DNA from: Coriobacteriaceae bacterium
GTDB lineage: Bacteria; Actinomycetota; Coriobacteriia; Coriobacteriales; Eggerthellaceae
NCBI GenBank assembly: GCA_015062635.1
Contig: SUUF01000001.1
Coordinates: 1-48,763 of the forward strand
Length of the DNA stretch: 48,763 nucleotides
Direction: 5' to 3'
Part shown: positions 3,906 to 42,973 of the stretch, piece by piece
Layout of the letters: every line of letters begins with the position of its first letter
Numbering within the stretch: the first letter of the stretch is position 1
Notes under the pieces: generated by a model
Told to the model about the DNA's origin: nothing
Database searches by the model: none
The model's input: the letters and a program-made list of their open reading frames with translations, nothing else
Translations under genes and position numbers: made by a program

Positions 3906-5180
3906 CTATTCCCAGCCGGTGTAGTCCTCGGTGTAGCCCTCGACATACCCGTCGGCGTACCCTTCCACGTAATCGCCGATGTAGTTGCCGTACTCGTCGT
4001 ACTGGGCGACGGCCTCGGACTGCGCCCGTGTGCCGTAGGAATCAGCGTCGACCTTCGAGGGGTCACCGCCCGCATCGACGACTTCCATGACGGCCTGCCA
4101 GCCCTCGGGGTTGTCATAGCATAGCCAGATGCCGCCGGCGCTGTCGTCGATTTCGCCCTCCGTCGGGCCCGTGCCGGAATAGATCGTCAGGCCACCGGAA
4201 CCGAAGTCCTTCATCAGCTTCGCGAAATCGACGAGGCTCATGTCGGTACCCAGGCAATCGGCGATCTTCAGCCCCAGGAACGGCCACTCGAACAGGGGCT
4301 TTTCGCGCATCGTGTCGGCGATGGCCATGATGAGCGTGCGGACGTTGCTCTGACGGGCCGAATCGACTCCGCCATACGCATTCCTCACGCGGGCAAAGAT
4401 CTGCGCCTCCTGCCCGTTCAGCACGCGCCGGCCGGCTTCGACCTTCACCTTCTCACCGGTGAGCGCGTCTTTGTACGAGATGTCTTTGGGAACGTCGACC
4501 TCGACGCCGCCGAGCGCGTCGACGAGGCCCTCGAGCCCCGAGAAGTGCGTCTCGATGGTATGCGCGATGGGCACGCCCGTGAGCTCGGACACCAGCTGGG
4601 TCTGCAGGGCGGCGCCGCCGGCGTTGTATGCCTCGTTGATCTTATTCACGGTACCGTCATGGTACCAACGGGTGTCGCGTGGCACCGACACGAGCGTGAC
4701 CTGCTTGTTCGCCGGGTCCATGCGTGCGAGGATGATGACGTCGGCGCGCTGCTGGTCGCCGCTCATCTCGGCCTTCTTGCTGGTGCCGGAATTCTCGCGC
4801 CAGTCGGATCCGAGCAGCAGGATGTAATAGGGCTCGTCCGCCGCCGCGGGCGTGAGCTGCTCTTGCAGGGCCTCGGGGTTGGACAGGCTCCCGTGGAGCT
4901 TGCCTTCGAACACCAACGCATAGGCGACGACGGCGATGACAAGCGCCGCGATGATGGCGACGATGGCGATGGCGATGCGCTTTGCCAGCTTGCCTTTACG
5001 CGGAGCGCCACCTGCCGGGTAAGCGCCGCCCTGGCCGACGTACCGGTCGCGAGAGAAACTCGCCGCGCTCTGCCCATCTGAGGGATGCCCCAAATCGGAA
5101 GATGCCGCATGCTGTTCCCGCGACCCCTGTTGATATGAATTTTCCCAGTACGCTTCAGATTGCTTCGATGTGCGCGCCAA
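3906..5180 (-). CDS. LCP family glycopolymer ligase (membrane-anchored paralogue)
   Basis: TTG start 8 nt after GGAGG. Motifs ILLLGSDWRE, RADVIILARMDP, VSVPRDT, NGQEAQIFARVRN. TM segment IAIAIVAIIAALVIAVVAYALVF. Tyr/Gly/Glu-rich C-terminal tail. Confidence 0.8.
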   Translation of the reverse strand: MARTSKQSEAYWENSYQQGSREQHAASSDLGHPSDGQSAASFSRDRYVGQGGAYPAGGAPRKGKLAKRIAIAIVAIIAALVIAVVAYALVFEGKLHGSLSNPEALQEQLTPAAADEPYYILLLGSDWRENSGTSKKAEMSGDQQRADVIILARMDPANKQVTLVSVPRDTRWYHDGTVNKINEAYNAGGAALQTQLVSELTGVPIAHTIETHFSGLEGLVDALGGVEVDVPKDISYKDALTGEKVKVEAGRRVLNGQEAQIFARVRNAYGGVDSARQSNVRTLIMAIADTMREKPLFEWPFLGLKIADCLGTDMSLVDFAKLMKDFGSGGLTIYSGTGPTEGEIDDSAGGIWLCYDNPEGWQAVMEVVDAGGDPSKVDADSYGTRAQSEAVAQYDEYGNYIGDYVEGYADGYVEGYTEDYTGWE

Positions 5181-5367
5181 TGAATTCGCCTCCGGCTATG
5201 CTCTGGTCTCACTGCCGATTTTTGAGTATACGGCCTGATATAGCGTGTCCTTAAAACCACACGATTTTTGCGGGGTTCGACTAAAGACCATTCACCCGAA
5301 GAAGCACCTGTCGGCCTCACCGCATTTCGAAACGATGCCGCCCGACGGTCTGGACGCAGCAGCGGCG

Positions 5368-5484
5368 GGCGCTTCGCCCCTCGGGGCATGCTTCCCCCCG
5401 GGCATGCCTCGCCTCCTTGGGGCACGCTTCGCCTCCTCGTGGCACGCTTCGCCTCCTCGTGGCATGCCTCGCCTCCTTGGGCAT
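5368..5484. repeat. 20-bp tandem repeat in A-B-B-A order
   Basis: Four exact 20-mers at 5401-5480: A=GGCATGCCTCGCCTCCTTGG (5401, 5461), B=GGCACGCTTCGCCTCCTCGT (5421, 5441). Shortened degenerate copies at 5368-5400 and a partial copy at 5481-5484. Confidence 0.9.
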
Positions 5485-5812
5485 TAATGTACAAACTTCG
5501 AGGTCCGTTACACAAAACCCCAGGTCGCGTTTTCAGAAGGTGAAGTTTGCACAGTAATCGCCAACGCGCCGGACTCTTGCGGCACTCTGCGCAAGGAATG
5601 CGGGGCTTTTCCGCCGGTATGGCTCTTCATGCCCACGCTGCGCATCGGAATTGCCTAGGGACGGACCATGCCTGCATGATGCCAAGGGAGCCAACATGTT
5701 TATGAGATGATGCAGCTCACGATATTGCGAAGGCTCCCGGGAAACGCAACGTCCACGCTGGTGTGATGAAAGCCATGAGGCGTCATTCCCTTTCTTTCAA
5801 GCTACGATGTGT

Positions 5813-6289
5813 CACGCAGCCGAATTGGCGACAAGGAAAATGCCGCTCGATCGGCTGCGTGGCGCGGCGCACCATTCAGCCGGATTGGCGACAGTCGAGA
5901 TGTCGCTAGATCGGCTGCGTGGCACGACATGCCGCCTGATTTGCACGATGGGCCTGGATTTGCGCCACACAGCCGAATTGCCGACAGGGGAAGTGTCGCT
6001 AAATCGGCTGCGTGGCGCACCATGTCGACGGATCGGCTGTATGGCACGAAAGTTGCGCCATACAGCCGATTCGCTGCCACGGCGCGCCATGCGGCCGATT
6101 CGACGACACGAGTAATGTCGCTGGATCGGCTCTGTGGCGCAAATCGGACCCGAAACGATTGCGCGCCTTCTTCGTTGCACCACGCAGCCGATTTGGCGAC
6201 ACCGGAACTGTCGACGGATCGGCTCTGTGGCGCTGCGCACCATTCAACCGAATCGGCGACATCGGAAGTGTCGCTCGATCGGCTGTATG
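5813..6289. repeat. Array of seven imperfect hairpin doublets (14 arms of a 21-nt motif in alternating orientation), REP/BIME-like
   Basis: Arm A ~CACGCAGCCGAWTTGGCGACA and its complement A' ~TGTCGCYNGATCGGCTGYRTG. A-7nt-A' hairpins start at 5813, 5873, 5966, 6088, 6181 and 6241. One A'-loop-A unit lies at 6023-6079. The double-hairpin block 5813-5921 recurs directly at 6181-6289. Confidence 0.9.
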
Positions 6290-6476
6290 GCGCAATACAT
6301 GCACGAAGCACCTGCACGGTGCTGCGATGGCTGTGATAAAGCGCAGCGTTTATGCTTGCCTTCCGCCATTCAATCGACATTTCGATTCGAAAGCATGGCG
6401 TGAGCATGCAGAACGACGAAGCCGAACATATCCCCCAAGTCAACCATGGTTGGGGCGCTGGAGATTTCTCGCTTCG

Positions 6477-6660
6477 CTCGAAATGAAAGAGGGTGGGAAG
6501 CTCGTCGGTATGACGTGGGATGAAACGTTCCTCGAAAGAGGGTGGACGTTCGCCGGAATGACGACGGGAGGCGGGACGTTCTTCGAAAGGGGGTGGGACG
6601 CTCTTCGAATGGCAGAGGGTGAAGCGTACGGCGAAACGACACTGGGAGGCGGGACGTGCG
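6477..6660. repeat. Degenerate 51-57-bp tandem repeat (about 3.4 copies)
   Basis: Units begin at 6477, 6531, 6582 (truncated, 22 nt) and 6604. Shared blocks are TCGAAAGRGGGTGGRACG and GGGAGGCGGGACGT. Confidence 0.75.
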
Positions 6661-6730
6661 TCGTGGCGGGAAGGAAGGCTGCTTTTGCCCTTCAACCGGC
6701 TTCCCGCACCCGGCGCAATTGCCTGCAACG

Positions 6731-6757
6731 AAAAGCGCCACCCCGTGGGATGGCGCC
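6731..6757 (-). terminator. Rho-independent terminator of glf
   Basis: GCGCCACCC / GGG(A)TGGCGC hairpin with a 3-nt loop, about 24 nt downstream of the glf stop. Followed on the minus strand by TTTTCGTT. Confidence 0.7.
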
Positions 6758-6780
6758 GTTTTGCGATGCGGTATGCCCGT

Positions 6781-7893
6781 TTAGCCGATCTTCACGCCCA
6801 GCTCACGTTCGACCAGGTCGAAGGCTGCGTCAATGGCCTTGTCCATGTCGTAGTACTTGTAGCCGCCGAGCCTGCCGGCGAAGACGACCTTGCCCTCCTT
6901 CGCGGCAAGCGCCTCGTACTGCTCGTACAGCGCGGTGTTGCGCTCGTCGTTGATGGGATAATACGGCTCGTCGCCCGGCTTCCAATCGGCCGGGTATTCG
7001 CGCGTGACGACCGTCTTCGGCTGCTCGCCGTACTCGAAGTGCTTGTGCTCGATGATGCGCGTCCACGGCACCGCGCGCTCGGTGTAGTTCACCACGGCGT
7101 TGCCCTGATGGTTCACCTCGTCGAGGATCTCGCTCTCGAAGCGAAGCGAGCGGTATTCCAAGCGCCCAAGCTGGTAATCGTAGAACTCGTCGATGGGCCC
7201 GCAATAGATGACGCGCGCTGCGATATCGGGCTCGGCGGCGATGAGGTCGCGGTACTCGGTGTTCAGGCGAATCTCGACGTCGCCGAACATGCGCTCGACC
7301 ATCTTCGTGTAACCGCCCATCGGGATGCCCTGCCAACGGTCGTTGAAGTAGTTGTTGTCGAAGCGGAAGCGGCACGGCAGACGCTTGATGATGCTCGCCG
7401 GTAGGTCCTTGCAATCGCGGCCCCACTGCTTTTCGGTGTAGCCCTTGATGAGCTTCTCGTACACATCGCGGCCCACAAGCGAAAGCGCCTGCTCCTCGAG
7501 GTTTCTCGGCTCGCCGATTCCCGCCTCGGCGACCTGTTCGGCGATCTTCGCCTGGGCCTGAGCGGGCGTGCGCACATCCTTCCACATCTGTGCGAAGGTG
7601 TTCATGTTGAACGGCAGGTTATACAGCTCGTCTCCATACACCGCCACCGGCGAGTTGATGTAGTTGTTGAACTCGGCGAACTGGTTCACGTAATCCCACA
7701 CGCGCCGGATGGAGGTGTGGAAGATATGCGCGCCGTACTTGTGCACGTTGATGCCCTCGACCTCCTCGCAATACACGTTGCCGGCGATATGCGGGCGCTT
7801 GTCGATGACGAGGCAGGTCTTCCCCGCTTTCAGGGCCTCGTGCACGAAGACCGCGCTCGAGATTCCCGCTCCCACCACCAAATAGTCGTACAT
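6781..7893 (-). CDS. glf: UDP-galactopyranose mutase
   Basis: ORF 6781..8037 trimmed to ATG 7893 (MYDYLVVGAGISSAVF, Rossmann GxGxxG) preceded by AGGAAGGA. Motifs HKYGAHIFHT, YNLPFNMNTF, GGYKYYDMDKAI. Confidence 0.9.
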   Translation of the reverse strand: MYDYLVVGAGISSAVFVHEALKAGKTCLVIDKRPHIAGNVYCEEVEGINVHKYGAHIFHTSIRRVWDYVNQFAEFNNYINSPVAVYGDELYNLPFNMNTFAQMWKDVRTPAQAQAKIAEQVAEAGIGEPRNLEEQALSLVGRDVYEKLIKGYTEKQWGRDCKDLPASIIKRLPCRFRFDNNYFNDRWQGIPMGGYTKMVERMFGDVEIRLNTEYRDLIAAEPDIAARVIYCGPIDEFYDYQLGRLEYRSLRFESEILDEVNHQGNAVVNYTERAVPWTRIIEHKHFEYGEQPKTVVTREYPADWKPGDEPYYPINDERNTALYEQYEALAAKEGKVVFAGRLGGYKYYDMDKAIDAAFDLVERELGVKIG

Positions 7894-9218: not shown

Positions 9219-9275
9219 GCGCGCTATTGTACCGCACTTGCCCAAAGGCGACGTGCGAGCCGAGGCTGCGAACCG

Positions 9276-10439
9276 CTAGCGATGCAACACGCCCCGCATG
9301 CGGACGATGGCCTCTGACAGGCGGTCGTCGGGAACCGTGAGGCTGATGCGGATGAACCCTTCCCCATCGACGCCGTAACCGCTGCCCGGCGTGACCGCGA
9401 CATGCACTTCCTGCAGCAGGTAGTCGGCAAACGCCGCCGAGGTCCAGCCTTCGGGAATGCGCGCCCATACGTAGATCGTCGCCTTCGGCGGCGTGCAGGC
9501 AAGCCCCATCTCGTTGAGCGCGGGCACGACGATGTCGCGTCGACGCTGGTAGCATGCGCATTGTGCGCGCACCGTCGACTGGTCGCTCGAAAGCGCGACC
9601 GCCCCCGCCCGCTGTATGGCCCCGAACACGCCCGTGTCGACGTTGCTCTTCACCGTTGCAAGCGCCTGCACGGCCTGGGCGTTGCCCGCCGCGAACGCGA
9701 TGCGCCAGCCTGTCATGTTGTATCCCTTCGACAGGCTGAAGAACTCGATGCCGACCTCGCGCGCACCGGGGCGTTGCAGCAGCGCCGGCGCGCGGTAGCC
9801 GTCGTAGCAGATGTCGCAGTAGGCGTTGTCATGCGCGAGCAGGATGTCGTTCTCGCGGCAAAACGCGATGGCCTCGTCGAGATACGACTCGGGCGCGCAG
9901 GCGCCGGTCGGGTTGTTCGGATACCCGAGGAACATGATCTTCGCGCGTTGCAGAACCTCGGCGGGCACCTGCGTGAAATCGGCCAGATAGCCGTTGCGTG
10001 CCGTCGTGGGCATCTTCCATACGTCGGCGTTGCGCAAGGTCGCAGCCGCGGAATACGACGGATAGCCGATGCTCGGCGCGAGAACGGCATCGCCCTCGTC
10101 GACGAAGGCGTTGCCCAGGTGCACGAGGCCCTCCTTGCTGCCGATGAGCGCAAGCACCTCGCGTTCGGGGTCGACATCCACGCCGAACCGGGATGCCAGG
10201 TAGCCCGCAGCCGCCTGCCTGAACTCCATCGAGCCGGCATACGACGGGTAATGGTGGAATGCGGGGTCATGCAGGGCGTCGACCATCGCGTCGACGATGA
10301 ATTCCGGCGTGGGGCGGTCGGGGTCGCCGACGGAAAGCGACACGACGTCGATTCCCCGCTCCTCAAGCGCCGCCCTCTTCCGCGAAAGCTCGACGAACAG
10401 ATACGGCTTTGTCTCGAGCAGGCATTTCGATACGCGCAT
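9276..10439 (-). CDS. dapL: LL-diaminopimelate aminotransferase (class I PLP aminotransferase)
   Basis: ATG 10439 preceded by AAGGAAGGAA. Motifs KPYLFVEL, SLSVGDPDRPTP, IGSKEG, YPNNPTG, FSLSKGYNMTGWR (PLP lysine). dapA and dapB lie in the same window. Confidence 0.75.
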   Translation of the reverse strand: MRVSKCLLETKPYLFVELSRKRAALEERGIDVVSLSVGDPDRPTPEFIVDAMVDALHDPAFHHYPSYAGSMEFRQAAAGYLASRFGVDVDPEREVLALIGSKEGLVHLGNAFVDEGDAVLAPSIGYPSYSAAATLRNADVWKMPTTARNGYLADFTQVPAEVLQRAKIMFLGYPNNPTGACAPESYLDEAIAFCRENDILLAHDNAYCDICYDGYRAPALLQRPGAREVGIEFFSLSKGYNMTGWRIAFAAGNAQAVQALATVKSNVDTGVFGAIQRAGAVALSSDQSTVRAQCACYQRRRDIVVPALNEMGLACTPPKATIYVWARIPEGWTSAAFADYLLQEVHVAVTPGSGYGVDGEGFIRISLTVPDDRLSEAIVRMRGVLHR

Positions 10440-40368: not shown

Positions 40369-40452
40369 GGGGACATACATGTGTCGCCCGGGGACATACA
40401 TGTGGCGACCGGGGACATACATGTGGCGACCGGTGTATGTCCCCGGGCGACC
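40369..40452 (+). repeat. 21-bp tandem repeat array, cluster 1 (4 units; the last carries an inverted core that forms a hairpin)
   Basis: Units at 40369, 40390, 40411 and 40432: GGGGACATACATGTG(T/G)CG(C/A)CC x3, then GGTGTATGTCCCCGGGCGACC. A 12-bp stem CCGGGGACATAC (40409-40420) / GTATGTCCCCGG (40435-40446) encloses a 14-nt loop. Confidence 0.9.
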
Positions 40453-40515: not shown

Positions 40516-41265
40516 ATGGCAGGAAACACTTACAAGGAACGGGTGATCGTGCTGCGCAAGACGCGTTTGCGCGAAGCCGATCTTGTGGTGACGCTGCTCG
40601 CCGAAGACGGGCGGCAAATACGCGCCGTTGCGAAGGGCGCGCTGAAGCCCTCGGGGAGTTTCGCCTCTCGCCTGGAACTGTACTCATGCGCCGATGTCCT
40701 GCTCGTGAAGGGCCGCTCTCTCGACATCGTGAAAGAAGCGCGCCTGGTTGATGCGCATGCGCAACTGCGCTTCGATTTTGACCGAAGCGTCTGCGCAGCT
40801 CCCATGGCGGAACTCTTGGCGCAAGCAACCCAGGACGAGTTGCCGGTGGAACGGCTGTTTCCCATGACGCAAGCCGCGCTTTCCTGCTTGGAATCGGTCG
40901 ACTGTTCGCGCACGCGCCTCGTGATGAGCGCATTTCTGCTGAAGGCGGCGTCGCTGCTGGGCTTTCGGCCGAGCCTGGCGCATTGCACCGATTGCGGGCG
41001 ACCGCGCGAGGCGGGCGCACCGTGGATGTTCTCGTTTTCCGCCGGCGGCATGCTATGCCCCGAATGTGCGGTCATGCATGCGGCGGCGACAGCCCAGCCA
41101 GCTTCAGCCGTGCTCGCCGATGCGCTCATCCATGCCACCTTCGCCCAGGTTGCGGCCATGGATGTTGATCAACGCTCGCAAGTCGACCTCGCCCGCTTCA
41201 CCGGAAGCTGGATCCAGGAGCACATGACGACCCTGAAAAGCCTCCCCTTCGCCTGCGCCCTCTAA
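40516..41265 (+). CDS. recO: DNA repair protein RecO
   Basis: OB-fold N-terminus (KERVIVLRKTRLREADLVVTLL) and zinc motif CTDCG...CPEC. Downstream of era. Confidence 0.88.
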   Translation: MAGNTYKERVIVLRKTRLREADLVVTLLAEDGRQIRAVAKGALKPSGSFASRLELYSCADVLLVKGRSLDIVKEARLVDAHAQLRFDFDRSVCAAPMAELLAQATQDELPVERLFPMTQAALSCLESVDCSRTRLVMSAFLLKAASLLGFRPSLAHCTDCGRPREAGAPWMFSFSAGGMLCPECAVMHAAATAQPASAVLADALIHATFAQVAAMDVDQRSQVDLARFTGSWIQEHMTTLKSLPFACAL

Positions 41266-41274
41266 CGCAACATC

Positions 41275-41350
41275 GGGGACATACATGTGGCGACCGGGGA
41301 CATACATGTGGCGACCGGGGACATACATGTGGCGACCGGGGACATACATG
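41275..41350 (+). repeat. 21-bp tandem repeat array, cluster 2 (3 identical units plus a 13-nt partial unit)
   Basis: GGGGACATACATGTGGCGACC at 41275, 41296 and 41317. Partial GGGGACATACATG at 41338-41350. Starts 10 nt after the recO stop. Confidence 0.92.
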
Positions 41351-41388
41351 CCACGGCCACGTTTCGCCTCATCGCATAGCCCGAATAA

Positions 41389-41619
41389 TCATTCATCGCC
41401 ACGAGAACCGTCAAGGCTCACAAAAGCGTAGCTAACCTCTTCCATGACGTCCACCACGGCATCTTCCTGGATTACCCCAGCCATGGAAGCCGGGCAGATT
41501 ATCACCCATGGCTTGTTATTCTTCAGAACGGTCACGGGCTTTCCGGTCCTGTTCACCTCGCTTGTAAGTTTGGAAAAGTTCTTTTTCGCCTCGGCGAGGC
41601 CAATCGTGAATGCCGCCAT
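41389..41619 (-). CDS. Phd/YefM family antitoxin (orphan; no toxin gene adjacent)
   Basis: 76 aa. FTIGLAEAKKNFSKLTSEVNRTGKPVTVLKNNKPWVIICP. SD GGGAAGGA. Confidence 0.7.
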   Translation of the reverse strand: MAAFTIGLAEAKKNFSKLTSEVNRTGKPVTVLKNNKPWVIICPASMAGVIQEDAVVDVMEEVSYAFVSLDGSRGDE

Positions 41620-41637
41620 CTCGTCCTTCCCAACGAC

Positions 41638-41665
41638 TTGCGTTAACCTTCTTTCTGACTAGAAT
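41638..41665 (+). promoter_or_regulatory. Candidate promoter TTGCGT-16 nt-TAGAAT for the 41704 ORF
   Basis: -35 at 41638-41643, -10 at 41660-41665. The AT-rich divergent intergenic region contains the inverted repeat AGAAT(41661)...ATTCT(41676). Confidence 0.4.
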
Positions 41666-41703
41666 ATAGCATACAATTCTGGTCATTGAGGAAAGGAGCA
41701 ATC

Positions 41704-41967
41704 ATGGCATTATATTGGCCCGATCAAAAAGTCGCCCTCGATATTGTTGACGATGCATTGGCGGAACATATTGGCCCAGGAGACCTACCCTCAGACTGGA
41801 GAGTCCTCCGAGTAACAGCCGCCCAGGTAGATAACCTGGAAGGAATGCGTCAAATAGGTGACACCCTATGCATCATGTTGGGCGTCGATCCGCCCGAGAA
41901 GACCCCCGAATGGCTTGAGGCGAATGAGCGCTTGTTTAATGCATTGCGCACACCCCTTTGGCTTTAG
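41704..41967 (+). CDS. Hypothetical small protein, possibly a degenerate DUF559/Vsr-fold fragment
   Basis: ATG 41704 lies 5 nt after GGAAAGGAG. LYWPDQKVALDIVDD...DWRVLRVTAAQV resembles the core and C-terminal strands of DUF559 endonuclease-like proteins, but the usual E-x-D-G and K residues are absent. Confidence 0.35.
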   Translation: MALYWPDQKVALDIVDDALAEHIGPGDLPSDWRVLRVTAAQVDNLEGMRQIGDTLCIMLGVDPPEKTPEWLEANERLFNALRTPLWL

Positions 41968-42009
41968 AGCTGCCCATGGGCAGATTCCGACAATTCCGAG
42001 GAGGCTCAA

Positions 42010-42789
42010 ATGGCACGCATGGCACGGCAGTTGGCTGGAACGGGGTTTTATCATGTCGTGAGCAAAGGAGATGGCGGGCGGCTCATTTTCGAGTCAGACA
42101 AGAGCCGGTTGAAATACCTGACGCTCCTTGATGAAACGCTCGGGGAGCATCGTGTTTTACTGCACGCATACTGCCTGATGGGCAACCACGTGCATCTTCT
42201 TCTGCAAGACCCCGAAGATGAGTTAAGCGCTTTCATGAAAAGGCTGAACGAATCGTACGCGCGGTATTTTGCCTGGACGACTGGTCATGTGGGCCATGTA
42301 TTCCAGGGAAGGTTTTGGAGTGGGCCCATCGATACCGACGAGCGTTTTCTCACGACCATGCGCTACATCCACGCTAATCCGGAACCTGCGCGGATATGCC
42401 GCGCACAAGATTACCCGTGGAGCAGTTATCGCGCATACACACGTGCCCCGAGCATCACTTCGGCGAAAGGACATCCCAGCGTTGAAGTGCAGTTCGCCCT
42501 TTCACTGCTCGGGGGCGTCGAGTCTTTCGCGCAATTCAGCAGGTCAGGAGGAAACTACCCACGCCCCTTCCCCGAATGTGCGATGAAGGGCCATCTTTCC
42601 GATGATGAGATGGCCACGATAGCGGTTAACCTGCTTGGACGCGATGTCCTTACAGAGATCCGGAGCATGGAACCTAAGAAACGAGAAGCGCACCTTGCCC
42701 GGCTTTCCCGTGCGGGATTTAGCAAGAGCGAGATTGCGCGACTGACCGGACTTGGAAAAACATCCATATCCCGTGCGCTTCGCTGTTAA
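42010..42789 (+). CDS. IS200-like Y1 (HUH) transposase of the REP-associated (RAYT / COG1943) type with C-terminal HTH
   Basis: FYHVVSKGDGGRLIF, HUH motif in CLMGNHVHLLLQ, FQGRFWS, catalytic Tyr motif MRYIHANP, PWSSYRAY. C-terminal HTH is GFSKSEIARLTGLGKTSISRAL. SD GAGGAGG lies 5 nt upstream. Confidence 0.8.
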   Translation: MARMARQLAGTGFYHVVSKGDGGRLIFESDKSRLKYLTLLDETLGEHRVLLHAYCLMGNHVHLLLQDPEDELSAFMKRLNESYARYFAWTTGHVGHVFQGRFWSGPIDTDERFLTTMRYIHANPEPARICRAQDYPWSSYRAYTRAPSITSAKGHPSVEVQFALSLLGGVESFAQFSRSGGNYPRPFPECAMKGHLSDDEMATIAVNLLGRDVLTEIRSMEPKKREAHLARLSRAGFSKSEIARLTGLGKTSISRALRC

Positions 42790-42900
42790 CGGCTCGGTTG
42801 CATTGCGCGTATCCTTCAGATTAGCCGCTCGTGCGCTTCGGGAATGCAATTGGCGAACGGGGCATACCTCAGGTAGTCAGCTTGTTCCCGCCTATAGCAA

Positions 42901-42973
42901 GTATGTCCCCGGTCGCCACATGTATGTCCCCGGCCGCCACATGTATGTCCCCGGCCGCCACATGTATGTCCCC
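42901..42973 (-). repeat. 21-bp tandem repeat array, cluster 3 (inverse orientation: a 10-nt partial unit plus 3 units)
   Basis: GTATGTCCCC (42901), then GG(T/C)CGCCACATGTATGTCCCC at 42911, 42932 and 42953. A plus-oriented degenerate copy GGCGAACGGGGCATAC (42852-42867) can pair with 42901-42917. The array ends 16 nt before the dgkA stop. Confidence 0.92.

Follow-up and report, generated by a model that had tools for sequence, protein, structure and literature searches.

A putative lineage-restricted composite palindromic repeat element in intergenic DNA of an uncultured Eggerthellaceae bacterium

The stretch of DNA analysed here, referred to below as the window, comprises 48,763 nucleotides of an uncultured member of the Eggerthellaceae (Coriobacteriaceae bacterium, GenBank assembly GCA_015062635.1, contig SUUF01000001.1) and carries at positions 5809-6293 an array of hairpins. 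With a probability of roughly 60%, the array is best explained as a paralogous copy of a composite palindromic repeat element that is non-coding and restricted to its lineage. The element is narrowly distributed and low in copy number, occupies at least seven intergenic loci and shows constrained pairing. DNA of the host occurs in faecal and bovine gut metagenomes and its UDP-galactopyranose mutase (Glf) shares 88-89% identity with the Glf proteins of Denitrobacterium detoxificans and Curtanaerobium respiraculi.

Repeat finding revealed a 57-nt near-palindrome in six direct copies starting at 5809, 5869, 5962, 6084, 6177 and 6237 (start-to-start spacings of 60, 93, 122, 93 and 60), in each of which an L arm and an R arm of 25 nt enclose a loop of 7 nt. 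These six units and one central junction hairpin, formed by an R-arm/L-arm pair at 6022-6076, make up 14 arms. The arm motif CAGCCGAWTNGNCGACA, searched with up to two mismatches, has 12 matches, every one inside 5817-6285, against 0.53 expected from shuffled sequences, and none of 100 shuffles reached 12. Each arm contains the conserved blocks GCGCCA, AGCCG and GCGACA (positions 1-6, 10-14 and 20-25), the centres of which are about one helical turn apart, with variable and often mismatched positions between them; in an alignment of 35 units, the unit starts with GCGCCA and ends with TGGCGC. The stem of the 57-nt unit is about 25 bp long and interrupted, and a single arm is not self-palindromic but pairs only with its neighbouring arm.

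The original prediction, made from the sequence of the window, had described 14 alternating arms and six hairpins, which are the same units with their starts (5813 etc.) set 4 nt further in. The 11 bp of perfect outer pairing that it gave for the first unit (CACGCAGCCGA/TCGGCTGCGTG) can be read directly in the sequence. The oppositely ordered central unit is likewise present, with a predicted stem of about 17 bp (about 6029-6073) instead of 14, and the double hairpin at the 5' end (block 5802-5923) recurs at the 3' end (6170-6291) with 77% identity. The array is predicted to fold far more stably than shuffled sequences on both strands (z = -13.9 on the plus and -15.1 on the minus strand). A reading of the whole 1.6-kb spacer that holds the array as one giant palindrome was rejected, in-register complementarity being found only at about 5760-6340.

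Further arrays were found by way of the spurious open reading frames (ORFs) that cross them. Proteins were searched with the translated array and with a profile, and 1.84 billion protein representatives were screened exhaustively with an HMM; this screen gave 11 matches, ten of them spurious array ORFs (P0121-P0130) and one an unrelated repeat protein (P0131). Profile and covariance-model scans placed these other arrays in intergenic DNA. Seven further arrays were thus located at six other intergenic loci from the same metagenome assemblies: upstream of an MFS transporter gene (L101), as a pair flanking a DUF559 gene that adjoins mreB (L102/L121), after a nitroreductase gene (L106), after a NiFeSe hydrogenase gene and its terminator (L110), before an AlbA_2-domain gene (L119, the same as L124-L126) and after rpiB (L120). 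With the window copy, the family amounts to eight arrays at seven loci with about 55 hairpins, a lower bound as no complete genome is at hand. The elements measure about 0.4-0.65 kb and their copy number is low, about ten. The inference of a dispersed family in the original prediction is thereby borne out, the motif being extragenic, non-coding and anything but confined to one site.

The assembly ERZ27248377 contains the window locus and three other array loci, and the DNA flanking the L101 and L106 arrays matches the window in composition; judged by this co-occurrence and composition, all the arrays probably belong to one genome. In contigs from four faecal metagenome runs, compared at 80% likeness, sequences 80-95% alike pile up over the hairpins and then continue into unrelated sequence. 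The depth over the array in one of the runs (X1) is 223 against a baseline of 18, and the four metagenomes span about 4-12 times the baseline. When a covariance model of the unit was run over 131 kb of DNA from the organism and its relatives, all significant matches fell inside or at the edge of arrays; solitary hairpins or doublets were found nowhere in these 131 kb and the relatives gave no matches. The low copy number and the absence of solitary units in the 131 kb count against the explanation preferred here and are unlike REPs and REPINs.

The narrow distribution is apparent from the pattern searches. A pattern of the R arm gave 72 single matches in 185,579 species-representative genomes, against about 70 expected by chance. 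Every array found later matches this pattern one to eight times, and its absence from the representative genomes is therefore meaningful. The same pattern gave 17 single chance matches in a collection of metagenome contigs, a weak negative because the collection failed to return known JGI contigs, and two single chance matches in viral contigs, where a palindromic two-block pattern gave eight matches with no inner similarity. A BLAST search of plasmids and phages with the array found nothing.

Alignment of the arrays revealed a core of 369 nt common to them, in which the modules p1, A, B, C, D, E and F follow one another in a fixed order, except that the L120 array lacks module p1, its first ~93 nt being non-homologous in the core alignment. 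Module p1 comprises a 57-nt hairpin and a 36-nt linker (a degenerate R arm ending in GGATTT); A is a 57-nt hairpin; B (36 nt) is an R-type arm followed by GAAAGTT; C is a 54-nt hairpin with a GAAA loop; D (36 nt) consists of ..ATTT and an L-type arm ending in GCCACGGC; E is another 57-nt hairpin and F is a 36-nt linker (AAATCGG..CGAAACG..TTCTTC). Zero to three extra 57-nt units lie outside the core on each side, so that the array ends are ragged and the termini of the element cannot be defined.

The window copy as a whole (5809-6293, plus strand) is collinear with L101:276-821. It begins with an outer hairpin unit, L-1 (5809-5865; 65.5 bits with cmsearch), and a 3-nt linker, followed by module p1 at 5869-5961 (hairpin 5869-5925, linker 5926-5961), module A at 5962-6018 (loop GGGGAAG; 77.6 bits; 93% identical to the corresponding module of L101) and module B at 6019-6054, the R-type arm of which pairs with the next L-type arm. 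At 6055-6083 the start of the L arm of module C is fused to the end of module D. Module E follows as a hairpin at 6084-6140 with linker F at 6141-6176, and the array ends with two outer units, R+1 (6177-6233) and R+2 (6237-6293), which correspond to L101:705-821 with 86% identity. All these modules are on the plus strand.

The fusion at 6055-6083 is the scar of the single indel within the aligned array sequence, a gap of 61 nt (columns 195-255) present only in the window copy and in none of the seven others. The alignment shows that 61 nt have been deleted from the window copy, one endpoint lying in the L arm of module C and the other in that of module D, and the loss may have come about by recombination or slippage between these two arms. 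Because the deletion fuses C and D, the central unit of the window looks reversed, and the spacing of 122 has the same cause.

The collinear cores have a mean column identity of 84% (six cores) or 82% (eight cores), and paralogous arrays differ by 12-30%. For most units, the neighbour is less similar than the unit at the corresponding position of a different array, as with module A of the window and of L101, and the best match is the same position in another array for 12 of the 18 core units. The array is accordingly one composite element of fixed order, and a cluster assembled in situ from independently inserted REPs or REPINs is not supported.

The array lies in a repeat-rich spacer of 1.6 kb (5181-6780). 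On one side the spacer is bordered by the stop codon of glf (6781-7893, minus strand) and on the other by the start of a LytR-CpsA-Psr (LCP) gene (3906-5180, minus strand). An intrinsic-terminator-like hairpin (6734-6757, minus strand) directly follows glf, and the array lies beyond it. The spacer is 100% identical in four other metagenome contigs with an identical Glf (over 1600 nt in three and 1227 nt in one); as these copies are all identical, they carry no information on covariation or polymorphism. In the two nearest relatives, with Glf 96% and 94% identical and DNA about 84% identical, the spacer and the array are missing and the gap between glf and the LCP gene measures only about 113 and 96 nt (L078:11138-11250, which has a terminator hairpin, and L079:1530-1625, respectively). 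The whole repeat-rich spacer is therefore specific to the lineage. A TATACT box conserved in the gap of the relatives is kept in the window at about 5225-5235, which places the repeat island between the old terminator and the old promoter.

By this comparison, the element reached the site in company with other small repeats, after the split from the nearest sampled relatives. Neither an insertion polymorphism nor an empty-site pair was seen, the five metagenome copies of the glf-LCP locus being identical, and no target-site duplication was seen at empty sites of the relatives that are too diverged to show one. Lying between a terminator and the next promoter, the element is probably nearly neutral at this site, and at most a structural barrier or insulator. 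A contig of one run (X25, library type not on record) stops at 6731, just past the predicted terminator of glf; if this run is RNA, the contig end would mean termination ahead of the array.

The spacer holds several repeats besides the hairpins. A 20-nt tandem repeat of about 5.8 copies lies at 5370-5483, upstream of the LCP promoter region. Read on the minus strand, like the LCP gene, each of its units has AGGAGG, then 6 nt and ATG or GTG, and the repeat thus iterates a Shine-Dalgarno-plus-start-like motif. At 6470-6670, G-rich repeats (GAAAGAGGGTGGG.. and GGGAGGCGGGACG) show partial complementarity to the CGCCTCC of these 20-mers, which lie on the other side of the array; the complementarity amounts to about 70% over 30 nt and is approximately in register with the dyad of the array. 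A module of about 90 nt is common to window positions 5481-5568 and the left flank of the L101 array (L101:47-135; 72% identity). A second small dispersed repeat, found at 6441-6519 in the window, at L106:4041-4082 and at L119:7120-7201 and 9262-9288, lies 0.1-3 kb from hairpin arrays at three loci and is about eightfold over-represented in run X1. These spacers with hairpin arrays are mosaics of several repeat families.

The affinities of the family were examined by comparison with the known classes of palindromic repeats. A REP is an imperfect palindrome of 20-40 nt with a stem of 5-13 bp and a conserved unpaired tetranucleotide, GTAG or CGTC, at one end (PMC3733652). By the published criteria, REPs usually exceed 100 copies per genome, many of them singlets and doublets, and themselves flank their cognate RAYT gene (PMC3733652; PMC2817692, PMC3337134). 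The present unit is 57 nt long with an interrupted stem and arms that are not self-palindromic, and the 35 aligned units show no conserved GTAG or CGTC. The copy number (eight arrays as a lower bound, a depth several-fold above baseline and no solitary units) is far from that of REPs, and the RAYT-like gene of the window is flanked by an unrelated 21-mer. Canonical REP/RAYT membership thus fails on unit size, tag, copy number and transposase flanking. The extragenic location is shared with REPs, since all eight arrays lie between real genes and are overlapped by spurious ORFs only.

The layout is nearer to that of BIMEs, as L and R arms alternate and the linkers GAAAGTT, GGATTT and AAATCGG..CGAAACG are conserved across arrays. 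BIMEs are mosaics of REPs that bind IHF, gyrase or Pol I. Like them, the present element is an extragenic mosaic of alternating palindromic arms with conserved short and long linkers and a variable number of units, situated between transcription units. Unlike them, it is not built from 20-40-nt self-palindromes with a GTAG tag, its modules follow a fixed order over 369 nt, it exists in about ten copies and not hundreds and its host belongs to the Coriobacteriia. The REPINs of Pseudomonas and E. coli resemble it in having two inverted sequences of about 25 nt that form a mismatched hairpin, in their extragenic location, in their tandem clusters and in the presence of a RAYT-like Y1 transposase gene within the same genome window; they differ from it by the GTAG/CGTC tag, by solitary copies and by the relation to the RAYT gene, which here has an unrelated 21-mer at its flanks.

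Two further classes are similar in general plan. Pneumococcal BOX elements consist of boxA, boxB repeated n times and boxC and are present in about 100 or more copies per genome. They too are modular non-coding composites with a conserved order, variable internal or edge units and a strong predicted structure, dispersed in intergenic DNA without a transposase of their own; however, they are not built from one palindromic arm in both orientations, and a relationship in sequence is not expected. Some MITEs, such as Chunjie of Geobacter, have REP-like internal hairpins and are non-coding multi-hairpin elements of a few hundred nucleotides that lie between genes without disrupting them. The present element differs from these in having no defined terminal inverted repeats beyond the arms, its ends being inverted arms by construction but ragged, with zero to three outer units, and no related autonomous IS was identified. 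CRISPR arrays were rejected as a class because the linkers are 3-36 nt long and conserved between arrays, instead of being unique spacers, and integron attC, parS and origin readings were ruled out on anatomy.

The arrays are therefore best read as a new family of composite extragenic palindromes, narrow in distribution and low in copy number, that resembles BIMEs, REPIN clusters and BOX elements. The original prediction of a BIME/REPIN-like cluster holds for the alternating arms and the conserved linkers; it does not hold as regards independent insertion, and the low copy number, the missing tag and the absence of solitary units set the family apart. To our knowledge, nearly all REPs, BIMEs and REPINs described so far come from Proteobacteria and a few further phyla, and a full-text literature search found no report of extragenic palindromic repeats in Eggerthella, Coriobacteriia or Actinobacteria. 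A gut lineage of the Coriobacteriia would thus have evolved or acquired an analogous repeat element that exists only as a fixed-order composite, which raises the question of how a nested palindrome of 0.4-0.65 kb comes to be copied elsewhere when there is no recognisable transposase.

A plausible course of events can be outlined by analogy with non-autonomous repeats of the REPIN, BIME or BOX type, which the element seems to resemble in its behaviour. It would spread as a unit, probably via single-stranded hairpin intermediates, and a nuclease or transposase provided in trans would be the enzyme that processes these. After copying, unequal recombination between the near-identical arms would reshape the element, and the 61-nt deletion and the variable edge units may be examples of such reshaping.

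The only RAYT-like gene seen lies in the window itself. The gene at 42010-42789 has a Y1_Tnp match (Pfam E-value 1e-9) and scores 55.6 bits with the NCBIfam model REP_Tyr_transpos (cutoff 80), against 17.7 bits for IS200, and is best described as a RAYT-like Y1 transposase gene that falls below the cutoff of the RAYT model. It lies with a Phd/YefM antitoxin gene (41389-41619, minus strand) in an island of low GC content (41351-42900; 56%), at the ends of which tandem arrays of the 21-mer GGGGACATACATGTGGCGACC (41274-41350 and 42901-42973) stand in inverted orientation. Another array of this 21-mer, at 40369-40433, precedes recO (40516-41265). RAYT genes flanked by long terminal inverted repeats have been described by Di Nocera et al. 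(PMC3733652), and the island resembles a RAYT gene of this kind. That the gene is flanked by a repeat different from the hairpins had been noticed in the original prediction, which also pointed to TGGCGAC as a sequence shared by the two repeats, perhaps by coincidence. Coincidence is the best reading of it, as the 21-mer is absent from all the other array loci, and nothing in the sequences compared links the RAYT-like gene to the hairpin family. No mobilising enzyme was thus found, which counts against the explanation preferred here.

Evidence for constrained pairing comes from the distribution of changes between arrays. A smaller share of the columns varies in the stems (72 of 222) than in the linkers and loops (78 of 147), and 84% of the cells in the 57-nt L-R units are paired, the stem being broken by a conserved A.A mismatch and by variable triplets. 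Covariation between the L and R arms of the same unit shows no excess (0.133 against 0.141 in shuffles). The central junction helices, formed by B with the L arm of C and by the R arm of C with D, are paired in 90.4% of the cells, contain nine double-change cells where 4.0 are expected and show a covariation of 0.114 against 0.079, a value reached by none of 500 shuffles; resting on eight related sequences, this covariation is indicative and not a proof. The nested alternative, with the C hairpin inside a B.D stem, shows no covariation, and the evidence favours the two junction hairpins at the centre of the core. Template switching within palindromes can also give rise to paired changes.

These compensatory changes, as well as the retention of a collinear 369-nt core among the paralogues, could also be accounted for if the core were a multi-copy gene for a structured non-coding RNA, with five or more hairpins and purine-rich loops on the plus strand, serving for example as a protein-binding scaffold or sponge. 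In every array the loops of one strand are rich in purines (76%), although the loop sequences differ, and on this strand, which is taken as the sense strand and is the plus strand of the window, G.T mismatches outnumber A.C mismatches by 57 to 32. Together, the purine loops and the G.T excess point to a strand-specific constraint that a purely double-stranded neutral element would not need, and to that extent they count against the explanation preferred here. GAAA motifs in module C, in the B/C loop and in linker F, and a weak terminator-like site just past the array (6330-6347, plus strand), agree with such a gene. The two strands, however, do not differ in folding energy (-33.6 against -33.0 kcal/mol over 28 units, p = 0.41), and the missing covariation within the 57-nt hairpins, the ragged ends and the variable number of units are also unfavourable to an RNA gene. 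No promoter-like site was found upstream, and the window has no match in Rfam 15 at the gathering score, an E-value threshold giving only weak matches at chance level. The sparse runs that contain glf have no contig over the spacer, which is a weak argument, and the spacer occurs in no RNA run. The sense strand is co-directional with the neighbouring genes at four loci and antisense at three, including the window, so that no rule of orientation emerges. An RNA gene is on balance rather unlikely, and the repeat element is preferred.

Binding of a host protein to the arrays as double-stranded DNA is an improbable alternative. The arrays would then be platforms for a nucleoid-associated protein, for gyrase as at BIME-2 or for a regulator, kept for chromosome organisation or insulation. 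The spacing of the three conserved arm blocks by roughly one helical turn, with variable positions between them, would suit such a role, as would the symmetry of the arrays on both strands and their position between transcription units, which at L110 and in the window is behind a terminator; an analogy is offered by BIMEs, which bind IHF and gyrase (PMC2817692). The arrays are nevertheless absent from the same site in close relatives and from all the species-representative genomes, which would be unexpected for a housekeeping function of the host, the paralogues differ by 12-30%, and no candidate protein is known.

A different partnership, a good deal more speculative, is suggested by the L102/L121 locus (L102:379-2922, the same as L121:3148-5691 reversed), where a complete hairpin array stands on each side of a DUF559 gene. 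The gene encodes a product with a Vsr/restriction-endonuclease fold, adjoins mreB and mreC and appears foreign, with a GC content of 51% against 64%. By our own estimate, two arrays would bracket one gene by chance with a probability of a few percent, given about eight arrays and about two thousand intergenic regions, and the arrangement echoes RAYT genes flanked by their REPs. It is conceivable, although with little probability, that the arrays are the repeat partner of a dedicated non-RAYT enzyme, with the DUF559 nuclease or a strand-specific RNA or single-stranded DNA form driving their spread or function. If true, Actinomycetota would have yielded a novel type of repeat-nuclease partnership.

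That the array arose purely locally, through replication slippage or palindrome amplification, or that it forms part of a protein-coding repeat gene, to which the long ORFs annotated by gene callers across it on both strands might point, is refuted by the seven other arrays with the same module order in unrelated contexts, by the codon-phase counts and by the protein searches described above. The variable core columns are distributed over the codon phases as 54/50/46, several reading frames are open across the arrays on both strands and the ORFs crossing the window array have no Pfam match. Lacking codon periodicity in its variation, the region is non-coding and not a conserved gene, the eventuality in which the original prediction was to be abandoned. 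The module lengths are nevertheless all multiples of three (57, 36, 54, 93 and 60 nt, with a core of 369 nt) despite the absence of periodicity, and this helps long spurious ORFs to stay open. The arrays consequently yield spurious "proteins" of 170-310 amino acids in public databases, for which an annotation flag is worthwhile, and it is equally worth flagging that many metagenome contigs end at the arrays, which act as assembly breaks.
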